A stretch of DNA of 10,473 bases, from the NCBI GenBank assembly GCA_043801585.1, contig JAZDLX010000019.1, positions 1 to 10,473 of the forward strand, read 5' to 3'. The stretch is from a bacterium. Lineage in GTDB: Bacteria > Electryoneota > Electryoneia > Electryoneales > Electryoneaceae. This document shows, one piece after another, positions 5,704 through 10,473 of this stretch. Every line of letters begins with the position of its first letter. Within the stretch, counting starts at the first letter, position 1. The translations under genes were made by a program, and so were the position numbers. The notes below the pieces were generated by a model, which saw only the letters and a list, made by a program, of their open reading frames with translations, was not told the DNA's origin and ran no database searches.

Positions 5704-6033
5704 TTATGCTGAAATAGTGCGGCTGACCGCACTGCGGTCGATAATGACCTTGGTGTTGTCGGAGATTTTGATGATCAACGCATTGTCCTTTTCGCGGATC
5801 CCGGCGATGGTCCCATGGATTCCACCGATGGTGACAATCTCATCGCCCTGCTTCAACTCATGGATCATCTTCTGCTGCTCTTTCTGCTTTTTCGCCTGGG
5901 GGCGAATCATCAGGAAATAGAGCACGAGGAAAATGAGGATGAAGGGCAGGAATCCAAGCAGTCCGCCGCCCTGGGCGCTCTTCTGGGCGCCAGCCTGAAT
6001 CAGCGCCATCAGTGGTGTTGCAAGAATCATCAT
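5704..6033 (-). CDS. yajC: Preprotein translocase subunit YajC
   Basis: One TM helix (FLPFILIFLVLYFLMIRPQ), then KKQKEQQKM...LKQGDEIVTIGGIHGTI, the YajC signature. Confidence 0.96.
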   Translation of the reverse strand: MMILATPLMALIQAGAQKSAQGGGLLGFLPFILIFLVLYFLMIRPQAKKQKEQQKMIHELKQGDEIVTIGGIHGTIAGIREKDNALIIKISDNTKVIIDRSAVSRTISA

Positions 6034-6631: not shown

Positions 6632-6663
6632 ATTCCCTCCGTGATTCACCTGGAGACATGCAC

Positions 6664-7452
6664 GTGAGTGCTACGGTTCGGTCCATCTTTGACGGTGACG
6701 CCGCCATCACCCTCTTTACCGGCAACTATGGCTCGGGAAAGACGGAGGTGTCGGTGAACGTGGCCACCTCTCTCGCCCGCTCCGGCAGTTCTCACATCAC
6801 CGTCGCCGACCTCGATCTGGTCAACCCCTACTTTCGCTGCCGTGAAGCCCGTGAACCGATGGAGTCACTGGGCATCCGTGTCGTCGCCCCCAGCGGCGAT
6901 TACCACAACGCCGACCTTCCCATCCTGATGCCGGAGGTGCGGGGCGCGGTCGAGCGTCCTCAGGGTCCGACGATCCTCGATGTGGGCGGCGATAATGTTG
7001 GCTCCACAGTGCTTGCCGGGCTTGCACCCCTGCTGAGAACCCGTCCCCACCGGATGGCGTTTGTGCTTAACCAGAGCCGTCCGTTCACCGGAACGGTCGA
7101 GGGTGCGATGCAGATCATGAACGAAATCGAATCCGCCAGCAGGCTGAAGATTACGCACATCGCCGGCAACACCCATATGATGGAAGAGACAAACCGCGAA
7201 ATGATCGTTGCCGGTGCGGCGTTCTGCAATGAAGTTGCCCGCTTGCGTGGCATCGAGTTGTTGTTCGTCACAATGGCGGAATCGCTGCTGGACGTCACCC
7301 CCAAGCCGGGCGCCCTGCTGACCGTTAAGGGGATCGACGCACCGGTGCTGCCGCTGAAACGGATCATGCTGCCGCCGTGGCTGGGTGGACCCGCGCCCGG
7401 CTCGATGGCGACACACTCGCGAGATGGTTTCGCGAGGATTACGGAAAGCTGA
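6664..7452 (+). CDS. Uncharacterised P-loop NTPase (SIMIBI; CobQ/MinD/ParA-like nucleotide-binding domain) of the type found upstream of 2-oxoacid:ferredoxin oxidoreductase genes
   Basis: Walker A GNYGSGKTE, then DLDLVNPYFR, ADLP, ILDVGGD, VLNQSRPFT, NTHM. GTG 6664 (GGAG at 6652-6655) or ATG 6658 is more plausible than the ORF-track start at 6553. Confidence 0.85.
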   Translation: MSATVRSIFDGDAAITLFTGNYGSGKTEVSVNVATSLARSGSSHITVADLDLVNPYFRCREAREPMESLGIRVVAPSGDYHNADLPILMPEVRGAVERPQGPTILDVGGDNVGSTVLAGLAPLLRTRPHRMAFVLNQSRPFTGTVEGAMQIMNEIESASRLKITHIAGNTHMMEETNREMIVAGAAFCNEVARLRGIELLFVTMAESLLDVTPKPGALLTVKGIDAPVLPLKRIMLPPWLGGPAPGSMATHSRDGFARITES

Positions 7453-7458
7453 GGAAGA

Positions 7459-7617
7459 AACAGGATTCACAGGATAGTCAGGATCACGACCTGACGGAGC
7501 GAAAAGGGCTGGATGACTGAAAGGTAACAGGATAGACAGGATAGTCAGGATTACTACCTGACGGAACGAAAAAGGCTGGATGACGAATGGTTACAAAATG
7601 GACAGGAGGGTCAGGAT
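7459..7617 (+). repeat. Left arms of CAGGAT 9-bp-period triplets, amplified as a 67/66-bp higher-order tandem repeat (about 2.4 copies)
   Basis: CAGGAT at 7461/7470/7479 and 7528/7537/7546; degenerate CAAAAT/CAGGAG/CAGGAT at 7594/7603/7612. The intervening segments 7485-7525 and 7552-7591 differ by 5 substitutions and 1 indel. Confidence 0.9.
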
Positions 7618-7638
7618 GACTGATGATGCGATTCAATA

Positions 7639-7713
7639 GTCATCCTGAACGAAGTGAAGGATCCATGAGTTGATGATTTCTTAGTTGCGTCAGGTCATTA
7701 GCGAAGCGGATCC
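7639..7713 (+). repeat. REP-like palindromic element (GTCATCCTGAACGAAGTGAAGGATCC) with a degenerate second copy
   Basis: 7639-7664 contains an internal ATCCT...AGGAT stem. 7694-7713 (GTCATTAGCGAAGCGGATCC) is a shortened version. Resembles the GTCATCCTGAGCGAAGCGAAGGATCT type of intergenic repeat (from memory, unverified). Confidence 0.6.
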
Positions 7714-7763
7714 CTGGCACGGAAGAGTCCATAAATCAAAATTCGATCTGTTTTGAATGTCTT

Positions 7764-7799
7764 AATCCTGTGTATCTGTGAAATCATGTGCATCCTGTT
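7764..7799 (-). repeat. Inverted right arm: ATCCTG units at 9-bp period
   Basis: ATCCTG 7765, ATCTGT 7774, ATCATG 7783, ATCCTG 7792. Ends ATCCTGTT, the reverse complement of the AACAGGAT that begins the left arms. Confidence 0.8.
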
Positions 7800-7845
7800 C
7801 AAGCTGTTCAAGGATGTTCGACCATTCAAGCGATTGGGAGAGACG

Positions 7846-8079
7846 ATGCCGCTGGTCACCATAGATCCGGAAACCTGCAAAGGTTGCGAGTTGTGCGTCG
7901 AGGCATGCCCGCAGGAGATCATTCAAATGACCGACACGATCAACACCAAGGGCTATTTCTACGCCAAAGTGTTCGATCAGCCGCGCTGCATTGGATGCCG
8001 GCTCTGCGCGATCATGTGTCCCGACGTGGCGATCGAGGTGGGGGTCAACGCCGTGCAGTACCAGTATTTCCCATACTAA
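7846..8079 (+). CDS. 2x[4Fe-4S] dicluster ferredoxin, delta-type subunit of 2-oxoacid:ferredoxin oxidoreductase (77 aa)
   Basis: CKGCELCVEACP and CIGCRLCAIMCPDVAI (two CxxCxxCxxxCP motifs), with INTKGY between. ATG 7846 follows GGGAG; the ORF-track extension from 7753 merely reads through the repeat arm. Confidence 0.95.
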   Translation: MPLVTIDPETCKGCELCVEACPQEIIQMTDTINTKGYFYAKVFDQPRCIGCRLCAIMCPDVAIEVGVNAVQYQYFPY

Positions 8080-8084
8080 GAAGG

Positions 8085-8336
8085 AACAGGATGGACAGGA
8101 TGGACAGGATAATCAAGGTGATAAAAAAGGAATAATGTTATCGAGGGTGGCCCGGCTGCCCCGTCAGCCGGGAAGCCGCAATTTTTCAGCACAGGCAGGA
8201 AATATCAACGAGTCAAATGGTTCTAAAACGGCACAAGGAAACGAAACAGGATGGACAGGATAAGCAGGATTTTGCAAATAGCACAGCGTTTCGGTCTTCT
8301 GTTTTTATTTCATCCTGATCATCTTGTACATCCTGT
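8085..8336. repeat. Second CAGGAT element: two left arms and one inverted right arm
   Basis: CAGGAT at 8087/8096/8105 and 8247/8256/8265; ATCCTG/ATCTTG/ATCCTG at 8312/8321/8330. Segments 8247-8270 and 8312-8335 are inverted repeats matching at 20/24 nt. Confidence 0.9.
8151..8172. repeat. GC-rich perfect hairpin (REP-like) inside the second element
   Basis: CCCGGCTG-CCCCGT-CAGCCGGG, an 8-bp stem preceded by GGGTGG. No immediate U-tract follows. Confidence 0.55.
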
Positions 8337-8370
8337 GAATTCTTTGATTTTGCTTTAAAAGAGGCATGTG

Positions 8371-9477
8371 ATGGCGAAGAAATTGATGAAAGGCAACGAA
8401 GCGATCGGCGAAGCGGCCATCCAGGCCGGAGCACGTCATTACTTCGCCTACCCGATTACACCGCAGACGGAAGTTGCCGAATACCTGGCGCGCCGGATGC
8501 CGGAAGTCGACGGTGTCTTTCTCCAGGCGGAATCGGAGCTTGGTGCGGCCAATATGATTTTCGGCGGAGCCTCGACCGGCAAACGGGTGTTTACCTCCTC
8601 GTCGAGTCCCGGCATCAGCCTGATGAGCGAAGCGCTCAGCTACATCGCCTGTGCGGAATTGCCCTGTGTCTTCATCAACGTCTGCCGCGCAGGACCCGGA
8701 CTCGGCGGAATTCTGCCCAGCCAGGGCGACTATTTCCAGGCGGCGCACGCGAGTGGGCACGGCGACTTTCACCTGCTGGTGCTGGCTCCCTCAACAGTGC
8801 AGGAGGCGGTGGAACATATCATGATCGCCTTTGACCTCGCGGACAAATACCGCAACCCGGTGATGATCTTCGCCGATGGACTGATCGGCCAGATGATGGA
8901 ACCGGTCGATTTTGACGCGGTCAAAACCGGCAAACCCGCCGACCACAGCGATTGGGCGATCACCGGGGCGAAGGGACGCAAAGCCAGAAGCCTGAGCACC
9001 GGGTCGAAACGGCAGCAAAGTATTGATAACCGTCACCTGGTAAAGACACTCTACCTCAATCCCGTGGATAACGAGAAACACAACATTCACCTCGCCGAAA
9101 AATATGAGAAGATGAAGGTTGAGGTGCGCCACGAGATTTACGGCGACCTGAGCAAGGCAACGATCCTGATCACCGCTTTCGGCACCTCGGCGCGTGTCTG
9201 CAAAACCGCCATCGATCAGCTCGCCGAAGAGGGCATTCACACGGCCCTGTTCCGCCCGATTACCCTCTACCCCTTCCCGGCGCAGGCGATCCGTGAGGCG
9301 GCGGAATTGAAAAACGTTGCCGCCATTCTATCCGTCGAGATGAACAACGGGCAGATGGTGGAGGATGTCAGGAAGTTTACACGCGAGATCAAACCGGTTC
9401 ACTTCTTCGGGCGGCAGGGCGGCATCGTCCCGAGTCCCGAGGAGGTTGTAGAAGTCGTGAAGAAGTTGGTGAAGTAA
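8371..9477 (+). CDS. vorB: 2-oxoacid:ferredoxin oxidoreductase alpha subunit, VorB-like (3-methyl-2-oxobutanoate dehydrogenase type)
   Basis: LMKGNEAIGEAAI, YPITPQTE, QAESE, TSSSSPGISLM, RAGPGLGGI, QGDY, GQMMEPV, FRPITLYPFP, VEMNNGQMVEDV. GAGG at 8361 precedes ATG 8371. Substrate specificity is inferred from family resemblance only. Confidence 0.93.
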   Translation: MAKKLMKGNEAIGEAAIQAGARHYFAYPITPQTEVAEYLARRMPEVDGVFLQAESELGAANMIFGGASTGKRVFTSSSSPGISLMSEALSYIACAELPCVFINVCRAGPGLGGILPSQGDYFQAAHASGHGDFHLLVLAPSTVQEAVEHIMIAFDLADKYRNPVMIFADGLIGQMMEPVDFDAVKTGKPADHSDWAITGAKGRKARSLSTGSKRQQSIDNRHLVKTLYLNPVDNEKHNIHLAEKYEKMKVEVRHEIYGDLSKATILITAFGTSARVCKTAIDQLAEEGIHTALFRPITLYPFPAQAIREAAELKNVAAILSVEMNNGQMVEDVRKFTREIKPVHFFGRQGGIVPSPEEVVEVVKKLVK

Positions 9478-9507
9478 ACAGGCGTTTGAGCAGTCAACGA
9501 GGCAAGC

Positions 9508-10287
9508 ATGGCGACGACAACCATTTTTCAGCGCCCCGAGGCGATGACCGACGTGGAAACTCATTACTGCCCGGGTTGCACCCACGGCGTGATACACCGG
9601 CTGGTGGCGGAATCGCTTGACGAACTGGGGCTGCGTGAAAAGGCGGTAGGCGTTGCACCGGTGGGCTGCTCGGTGCTCGCCTACAATTACTTCAACTGCG
9701 ATTTCCTCGAAGCTGCGCACGGCCGCGCACCGGCGTTCGCGACCGGACTGAAACGGGTCAGTCCCGAGCTGACCGTGTTCACCTACCAGGGCGATGGCGA
9801 TCTCGCCTCGATCGGCACCAACGAGATTCTTCACGCCGCCAACCGCGGCGAAAAGATCACCGTCATCTTCGTCAACAATGCGATCTATGGAATGACCGGC
9901 GGACAGATGGCCCCGACCACCCTGCCCGGCCAGATTACCACCACCAGCCCGATGGGCCGTGACGTCGAGCTCGCCGGATGGCCGATCCGCATTCGCGAAC
10001 TGCTGGCAACCCTGCGCACCCCGGCCTACATCGCCCGTGGCAGCGTGCACAGCCCCCAGTGGACGATCCGTACGAAGAAATACATCAAGAAAGCGTTCCA
10101 GTACCAAGAGGAAAAACGCTGCTTCAGCCTGGTGGAGGTCCTCTCCACCTGCCCGACAAACTGGGGAATGACCCCTGTCGAGGCAACGAAGTGGCTGGCG
10201 GAGAAAATGATCCCCTACTACCCCCTCGGCGAATTGAAAACTCCCGACGAGGAGGACGGGGTCGTAACGAAAATGCTGCACGAATGA
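9508..10287 (+). CDS. 2-oxoacid:ferredoxin oxidoreductase beta (TPP-binding) subunit
   Basis: HYCPGCTHG, PVGCS, AHGRAPA, TPP motif YQGDGDLASIG...FVNNAIYGMTGGQMAPTT, EVLSTCPTNWG, YYPLG. Confidence 0.95.
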   Translation: MATTTIFQRPEAMTDVETHYCPGCTHGVIHRLVAESLDELGLREKAVGVAPVGCSVLAYNYFNCDFLEAAHGRAPAFATGLKRVSPELTVFTYQGDGDLASIGTNEILHAANRGEKITVIFVNNAIYGMTGGQMAPTTLPGQITTTSPMGRDVELAGWPIRIRELLATLRTPAYIARGSVHSPQWTIRTKKYIKKAFQYQEEKRCFSLVEVLSTCPTNWGMTPVEATKWLAEKMIPYYPLGELKTPDEEDGVVTKMLHE

Positions 10288-10310
10288 AAACGAAACCGAG
10301 AACAAAATCT

Positions 10311-10338
10311 GAAACAGGATGTACAGGATAGACAGGAT
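10311..10338 (+). repeat. Third CAGGAT element, left arm only within the window
   Basis: GAAA-CAGGAT-GTA-CAGGAT-AGA-CAGGAT with units at 10315/10324/10333, starting 27 nt after the beta-subunit stop. Confidence 0.9.
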
Positions 10339-10428
10339 TTCTTAAGAGAATAAAAAGCAGTTATCCAAAATCTACCAACCGCTGGATGAAAGATCATCAT
10401 AAAAAACTCGCTTAAGAGCGGAGGGAAT

Positions 10429-10473
10429 ATGGCAAAAGAGGAAAAGAAAAAAGGGACCTGCTTTATTGTTGGT
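10429..10473 (+). CDS. Start of an unknown AT-rich gene (MAKEEKKKGTCFIVG...), truncated by the window edge
   Basis: GGAGGG at 10420-10425, ATG at 10429, then 15 open codons to the edge. Too short to assign a product. Confidence 0.6.
   Translation, partial: MAKEEKKKGTCFIVG

Follow-up and report, generated by a model that had tools for sequence, protein, structure and literature searches.

The stretch of DNA considered here, referred to as the window, comprises the 10,473 nt of contig JAZDLX010000019.1 (assembly GCA_043801585.1) from a bacterium of the family Electryoneaceae, and carries a yajC-def-fmt-rsmB-PASTA-rpe-tkt operon on the minus strand and, on the plus strand, an NTPase-ferredoxin-alpha-beta operon for a 2-oxoacid oxidoreductase. 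Junctions in the latter contain triplets of the hexamer CAGGAT, repeated with a 9-bp period, which had been interpreted in an original prediction as the arms of a non-autonomous insertion or gene-capture system. The analysis presented here suggests that the arrays are probably the inverted arms of a small family of elements, the full form of which consists of an arm, a gene encoding a GxxExxY protein and an inverted arm, and the gene-less copies of which would be generated through the action of the encoded, predicted nuclease.

CAGGAT arms in the window

Exact triplets begin at positions 7461, 8087 and 10315, at distances of 8, 7 and 27 nt from the preceding stop codons and in each case after AA, precisely as had been described. 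Fifteen doublets (with no more than one mismatch) were found in the window, compared with 0.06 expected from 200 shuffled sequences, and 14 of these are within three junctions, the other being a one-mismatch doublet inside the transketolase gene at 1156. Inverted arms are indeed present where two complete junctions were reported to close on inverted triplets, except that the first is degenerate, with two of four slots exact, and the second, at 8312-8335, has one mismatch. The three triplets originally listed are correct, although the description had overlooked forward arms at 7528-7551 and 8247-8270 and a degenerate one at 7594-7617; those at 7461, 7528 and 7594 are part of one 67-bp tandem amplification. 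The alpha/beta junction was rightly reported to lack the element, since no doublet was found there. The variable material in the two complete junctions, previously regarded as cargo, proved to consist of other dispersed palindromic repeat families and the 67-bp amplification, with no genes. The features of this region, including open reading frames (ORFs), are as follows.

6661-7452, plus strand: P-loop NTPase-like gene upstream of the operon (ORF with uncertain start; weak ParA-like matches only, E~0.008)
7461-7484, plus strand: forward arm, exact CAGGAT triplet, after the stop at 7452
7459-7621, plus strand: 67-bp tandem amplification, 2.5 copies, 84%, carrying the forward arms at 7461, 7528 and (degenerate) 7594
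7639-7663, plus strand: GTCATCCTGAA-type palindromic repeat with about 50 copies genome-wide, resembling SRM/CGTC-REP by comparison with motifs in the excerpted text of PMC11893778
7689-7718, plus strand: GTCAGG-type palindromic repeat of another dispersed family, 12 in the genome and present in junctions of relatives too
7765-7797, minus strand: degenerate inverted arm of four 9-bp slots, two of them exact ATCCTG; the ferredoxin gene starts 48 nt beyond it
7846-8079, plus strand: 4Fe-4S ferredoxin, 2-oxoacid oxidoreductase delta-like (family matches below curated cut-offs)
8087-8110, plus strand: forward arm, exact triplet, after the stop at 8079
8140-8237, no strand assigned: dispersed ~98-nt repeat with a GC-rich hairpin, with copies on three other contigs at 76-89% identity
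8247-8335, no strand assigned: complete gene-less element of 89 nt (forward arm at 8247-8270 and inverted arm at 8312-8335, with 41 nt between them)
8371-9477, plus strand: 2-oxoacid:ferredoxin oxidoreductase alpha, VorB subfamily (NF005507 above cut-off)
9478-9507, no strand assigned: alpha/beta junction, 30 nt, armless here by the doublet scan
9508-10287, plus strand: 2-oxoacid:ferredoxin oxidoreductase beta (family match)
10315-10338, plus strand: forward arm, exact triplet, after the stop at 10287; also in the C24 allele (see below) and in L206
10360-10395, plus strand: decayed GTCATCCTGAA-type repeat (score 40; 300 shuffles gave a mean of 20 and a maximum of 40)
10429-10473, plus strand: start of an ORF in AT-rich DNA, 15 codons, cut by the contig end

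Scans for promoters and terminators gave no excess over shuffled sequences, the Rfam scan returned one chance-level match only, and the degenerate SRM motif of the Ssn paper had no matches between window positions 6000 and 10473. The NTPase-like gene is without a Pfam family and precedes the ferredoxin-alpha-beta operon in many relatives too. At the other end of the operon (10360-10473), a ribosome-binding site and the start of the terminal ORF follow the decayed SRM-like repeat, possibly as the result of recent gene gain; no match to this ORF was found in 78 other genomes of the phylum, nor was its continuation found.

Arms across the genome and the GxxExxY gene they enclose

The source genome bin (G000; 3.28 Mb, 92% complete, 85% coding) holds 21 overlapping contig pairs of 88-99% identity, including C116/C24, and is a mix of two close populations. 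Its exact triplets number 19 and all have a 3-nt spacer, with no examples at spacers of 0-2 or 4-7 nt, in keeping with the conserved core and free linkers originally ascribed to arms of a non-autonomous element. A weight matrix (score of at least 16) identified 64 arms in G000 and none in the reversed genome. The anticipated preference for intergenic positions near stop codons was borne out, with 59 of the 64 arms lying outside called genes and median distances of 28.5 nt to stops versus 59 nt to starts (p = 0.0008). Junctions and genes were taken from the analysis's own gene caller, which missed the AT-rich GxxExxY gene described below, so that small AT-rich cargo elsewhere may escape it.

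The 32 arm-bearing junctions comprise 19 tandem, eight convergent and three divergent examples plus two at contig edges, convergent junctions being over-represented (p = 0.012). Paired arms face inward, such that a complete element reads identically on both strands, and orientation is for that reason uninformative about transcription; the fixed orientation once cited is no evidence in the case of palindromic gene-less copies, and 11 of the 32 junctions are convergent or divergent. In element junctions, other palindrome families reach ~4-5 times the density seen in junctions lacking the element, and the element junctions are therefore general hot spots. Junction sites dedicated to the element, as had been envisaged, are not what was observed, in that several unrelated repeat families occupy the junctions, including alpha/beta in relatives.

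Strict arm pairs in G000 (n = 19) span 63-441 nt and have unlike interiors, only three of which exceed 300 nt. Of these three, one contains a GxxExxY gene, whereas the remaining pair is composed of repeats, lending little support to gene capture as previously proposed. Beyond the lone forward arms on contigs C139 and C171 (L020:2265-3546 and L016:2551-3210), the DNA is AT-rich for 0.7-1.3 kb and no genes were called there. Two arms are located between genes in a phage-like region of C209 (L025:2337-2474), the element thus entering probable prophage DNA too, and, outside G000, 16 viral contig stretches bear short arm pairs.

The gene-bearing pair, on contig C78, is situated at the junction of nuoH-like and nuoI-like genes, named as such by sequence, without a family scan. 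The enclosed gene matches TIGR04256 / PF13366 above cut-off (E = 9.8e-34) and has the GxxExxY motif, although this copy is frameshifted near its start; the function of PF13366 is listed as unknown in the excerpted text of PMC3424549. Of the two types of partner that the original prediction named, GxxExxY genes are indeed enclosed by CAGGAT arms, whereas four-helix-bundle genes go with a separate family of heptamer arms. Residues G32, E35, Y38, D74, E84, K86 and Y102 are invariant in an alignment of 76 GxxExxY proteins. We take D74 and E84-x-K86 to match the PD-(D/E)XK catalytic motif, and Q98-Y102 is presumably reminiscent of the RecB-type QxxxY motif. The protein accordingly fits the description of a predicted PD-(D/E)XK nuclease of ~125 aa with its catalytic residues kept; a sequence search of solved structures gave no significant match. 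A second GxxExxY gene in G000, on C126, is associated with CGCCAAG-type repeats, and no triplets of that type were found elsewhere in the genome. A GxxExxY gene with outward-reading CGCCAAG repeats (L029:2268-2708) and a four-helix-bundle gene (L030:2-385) were observed on two contigs, each directly before similar restriction-modification-like genes.

Arms, enzymes and junctions compared between genomes

Across a family of 16 genomes, the repeats that have expanded in a genome are mostly of the type found in the arms of its own GxxExxY gene. These genomes were compared by overlapping match counts and no p-value was assigned, since kin are not independent. Genomes with a CAGGAT-armed gene (G000, G001, G002, G005 and G012) have 40, 39, 18, 50 and 18 CAGGAT matches, respectively, and 0-1 CACGRA matches. 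Conversely, genomes with a CACGGA- or CACGAA-armed gene (G004, G011, G013 and G014) have 48, 12, 20 and 25 CACGRA matches and 0-1 CAGGAT matches. G006 has a CACAGAG-armed gene and 12 CACAGAG matches, together with an eroded CAGGAT-type cassette and one CAGGAT match. The genomes without a PF13366 match (G003, G008, G010 and G015, of which G010 is 80% and G015 86% complete) have 0-2 matches of any of the three arm types, degenerate CACGAAT arrays being present in G015. At a finer level, the first letter of the third arm unit is C in 1 of 36 cases in G005 versus 19 of 21 in G000, and the dispersed arms and gene arms of G005 share the variant.

Most of the GxxExxY genes inspected in the phylum (29 loci, labelled by eye) carry their own arms with a 9-bp period and differing cores. 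In a tree of 80 GxxExxY proteins, from which a split gene and three pattern matches whose open frames are short were excluded, 53 of the 56 CAGGAT-armed proteins fall in a single clade of 55 rows (support 97/96), and the arm label changes three times, compared with 20.8 times for shuffled labels (minimum 16). Similarity in the 10 nt outside the arms rises with protein similarity, from 0.32 to 0.52.

Genomes in GTDB were scanned for a pair of CAGGAT units separated by 390-420 nt from an inverted pair, the size being modelled on the C78 element, and at least 120 loci were found. Among the matches listed, to which the following counts refer, 22 phyla are named; GxxExxY is encoded in 53 of 122 elements of 420-450 nt, with GxxExxY-bearing elements in 14 phyla and in none of the 15 cyanobacterial cases. 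The insertion sites are varied operon junctions, such as gyrB/gyrA and hemC/cobA. A Pfam scan of flanking ORFs covered 55 of 86, and by our own tally 17 of 18 Pfam-confirmed upstream genes have the same direction as the GxxExxY gene, indicating that the gene-bearing form is oriented for read-through. The encoded proteins are up to 82% identical across phyla, and horizontal spread is evident from proteins this similar in different phyla. Two ORFs checked among the 69 elements without GxxExxY encode a HicB-like antitoxin (L084:687-902) and a methyltransferase DNA-binding domain (L129:805-1185), both outside the phylum of the source bacterium; the remaining interiors hold mostly short or repeat-derived ORFs, as judged by eye with a family scan of part only.

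A CAGGAT-type gene is present at nuoH/nuoI in six of the 16 family genomes, spread over the host tree, and a seventh, G007, has a weak GxxExxY remnant there (E = 0.019); the other members have different gene-less arm types or a short junction. The copy in G002 contains an internal stop. Five of the six proteins cluster, with weak support, alongside three foreign rows, and the six do not form a supported clade. On these sequences, vertical descent of the gene copies is likely, with repeated entry as a possibility. No GxxExxY remnants were found in the gene-less interiors scanned, namely those of G000, G001, G005 and the viral loci. In G015, three tandem CACGAAT-armed gene-less units fill the ~550-nt nuoH/nuoI junction (L295).

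Empty and filled junctions among relatives, as the original prediction had foreseen, were observed also. Junctions of the oxidoreductase operon in 20 relatives range, among the matches listed, from overlap or 1-7 nt up to at least 1,414 nt; those of G003 are 1 and 7 nt and without elements, the NTPase/ferredoxin junction of the sister species has CAGGAT arms as well, and in G005, G006 and G012 the alpha/beta junction holds a heptamer-armed four-helix-bundle gene (L047:1078-1464, L046:1014-1400 and L036:1066-1434). Gene-less heptamer arms occur at the same operon in G002. When 30 of the 46 G001 matches were compared with G000, 11 junctions emerged whose two neighbours also lie side by side in G000. 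Of these, eight are armed in both genomes, with interiors that are unlike by eye, and three are armed only in G001 (147 vs 41, 104 vs 17 and 210 vs 107 nt). At beta/gamma, G001 and L206 seemed to differ in allele, but the difference proved to be an N gap and was discarded. Within the source bin, contig C24 carries a second beta allele, 94.6% identical to that of the window, in which beta is followed by the forward arm shared with the window and then by SRM-like repeats, the gamma gene coming after an inverted arm. The window allele instead has the decayed SRM-like repeat and the AT-rich ORF start, which are absent from C24, and similarity between the two stops at the start of the decayed repeat (10360) as opposed to at the arm.

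Proposed mechanism, alternative explanations and related systems

The anatomy of the element, its genome-wide distribution, the enclosure of GxxExxY, the matching of enzyme to arm and the filled and empty alleles are consistent with a family whose common form would be a gene-less palindrome of 60-360 nt and whose master copy, in this lineage, would reside at nuoH/nuoI and be expressed by operon read-through. We infer arm binding, cutting, DNA (as opposed to RNA) as substrate and the insertion route along the following lines: the nuclease would recognise its own three-unit arm in trans, by way of the fixed 6-bp core and free 3-bp linker, and nick or cut there, and host repair would then copy, duplicate and reshuffle arm-bounded DNA, giving rise to gene-less copies and turnover of interiors. 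Purifying selection would leave copies persisting mainly just past stop codons. That the family constitutes a distinct class of mobile or domesticated element—a minimal PD-(D/E)XK nuclease reading a periodic three-unit site, with a subfamily-specific core, a conserved operon junction, dozens of gene-less copies and hypervariable junctions—is put forward tentatively.

Several points weigh against this explanation. No intact cognate gene was found in the G000 assembly, a 92% complete and strain-mixed bin. G007 has 19 CACGRA and six CAGGAT matches, with no intact gene bearing those arms among the loci examined, and G009 does not match the enzyme-arm pattern either. Kinship of the family genomes makes the matching cases non-independent, and sampling for the tree was uneven, the CAGGAT rows having been chosen by pattern over many phyla and the others from one phylum. 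New insertion must be slow or old, because eight of the 11 compared junctions are common to the sister species. No target-site duplication was detected: in none of four sets did the longest word shared between flanks exceed that in shuffled sequences (p = 0.36, 0.053, 0.47 and 0.46; element ends inexact). No defined element ends were found. To our knowledge, strand-transfer chemistry is not known for a lone PD-(D/E)XK domain. Finally, 14 of 18 gene-less elements fold more stably as the sense strand, which fits a role in RNA.

The arms could feasibly have been selected as long mRNA hairpins that tune operon expression via RNase III processing or stability, much like mRNA versions of 23S rRNA intervening sequences (IVSs), with the nuclease gene as a passenger. 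Junction RNAs are more stable than shuffles (z = -2.56 and -3.54), the sense fold is the stabler at 13 of 16 element junctions versus 76 of 150 other junctions, and the Coxiella IVS, as described in the excerpted text of PMC4990558, combines heptamer repeats, a four-helix-bundle ORF and excision by RNase III. This explanation is nevertheless considered unlikely. Gene-bearing elements favour the sense strand in 23 of 53 cases only, a plain G>C skew (413 vs 349) can account for the folding bias, and ungapped arm pairing on the transcribed strand has no excess of G-U over A-C, with counts of 28 and 27, respectively, in this genome and of 74 and 83 in the gene-bearing elements. Moreover, structure alone could exist without an invariant core at a fixed period and without agreement with the resident enzyme, and relatives such as G003 manage without elements. 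In gene-less copies, complementarity of linkers and inner flanks is not greater within elements than between them (0.42 vs 0.43 for the linkers, as expected of binding sites); in the 53 gene-bearing elements it is greater within (0.59) than between (0.41), which may reflect subfamily-specific ends. A candidate bias of CAAGAT variants to 3' arms was dropped, pooled G>A changes numbering 11 in 5' arms and 10 in 3' arms.

It is somewhat more doubtful still that the arms are host-maintained cassette sites at which varied genes, such as those for defence or toxin-antitoxin systems, are captured and swapped. The ORF start past the last arm in the window allele, with no counterpart in C24, the AT-rich DNA beyond the lone arms of C139 and C171, and the HicB-like and methyltransferase-domain ORFs inside listed GTDB elements could be accommodated in this way, but the only recognisable gene within the 19 arm pairs of G000 is that of the nuclease itself, two of the three longest interiors are made of repeats, other listed GTDB interiors hold little beyond short or repeat-derived ORFs by eye, and the window alleles part at the decayed SRM-like repeat and not at the arm. 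Local origin by microsatellite slippage or fold-back duplication in A/G-rich post-stop sequence, with no trans-acting factor, appears very improbable. Tandem amplification does occur locally, as in the 67-bp unit of the window and the three units at nuoH/nuoI in G015; however, the cores stay constant while the linkers vary from one unit to its neighbour, a single core dominates the genome, the same arms recur with the same gene in the 22 phyla of the listed matches, and the repeat type follows the resident enzyme, by which matching slippage alone is already largely refuted.

With regard to known systems, classical miniature inverted-repeat transposable elements (MITEs) of insertion sequence elements are non-autonomous, have inverted ends and occur as dispersed intergenic copies, all of which is true of the CAGGAT elements. 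They differ from MITEs in having no detected target-site duplication, lengths of 63-441 nt with non-conserved interiors and no DDE transposase partner. The element works like REPIN-RAYT, TIRtrons and Ssn-SRM and resembles the Coxiella IVS in layout, and it differs from each in enzyme or location. The comparisons that follow refer to these systems as described in excerpted texts. As with REPIN-RAYT (PMC3116915, PMC5581495) and TIRtrons (PMC3733652), a low-copy enzyme gene lies between its own repeats, many extragenic gene-less inverted doublets form hairpins, repeat groups pair with particular enzymes (with G007 and G009 as exceptions here) and the gene is often held at one locus per lineage. 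Unlike REPIN-RAYT, the enzyme is a PF13366 protein as opposed to an HUH/Y1 tyrosine transposase, the arm is a tandem array that is itself non-palindromic, and horizontal spread between phyla is evident also. Like the 23S rRNA IVS (PMC4990558), the element is a unit of ~430 nt with complementary ends and tandem short repeats before a small decay-prone ORF, whereas it is sited between protein-coding genes, encodes a nuclease instead of a four-helix bundle and has a period of 9 instead of 7; the sister family with heptamer arms and four-helix-bundle genes, which fills the alpha/beta junction in three relatives, is IVS-like.

No description of the element was found in the literature searched, which included few subscription papers and no supplements. 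New here are the enzyme-repeat matching within one family, the common nuoH/nuoI site and the two-allele comparison. GxxExxY/PDDEXK_3 proteins are widespread, and the matching names enzyme-substrate pairs together with non-cognate controls from the same family. Were the enzyme to act on its own arms, it would join RAYT and Ssn as the third class of enzyme to propagate intergenic repeats, and would explain the fast turnover of junctions in core operons in more than 20 phyla. Were the family a distinct class of element, GxxExxY proteins would gain a function, and many small enzymes with predictable sites would become available.

The likeness to Ssn-SRM (PMC11893778) is that the gene for a small single-domain nuclease lies between cognate repeats, copies of which are dispersed as well. 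Ssn homologues cut their own repeat, the cleavage being proven in that source, and this may serve as a model for the specificity that the GxxExxY enzyme would have. The two differ in that Ssn is a GIY-YIG protein (cd10448), as opposed to the PD-(D/E)XK protein between repeats here, and in that SRMs are short self-folding hairpins, whereas the arms here are tandem arrays in pairs, separated by tens to hundreds of bases. SRM-like repeats are nested inside CAGGAT-arm junctions, and G000 has three short GIY-YIG genes (C15:23380, C212:12892 and C174:22621), with open frames of 91-105 aa, that are candidate Ssn-type partners of the nested palindromes.

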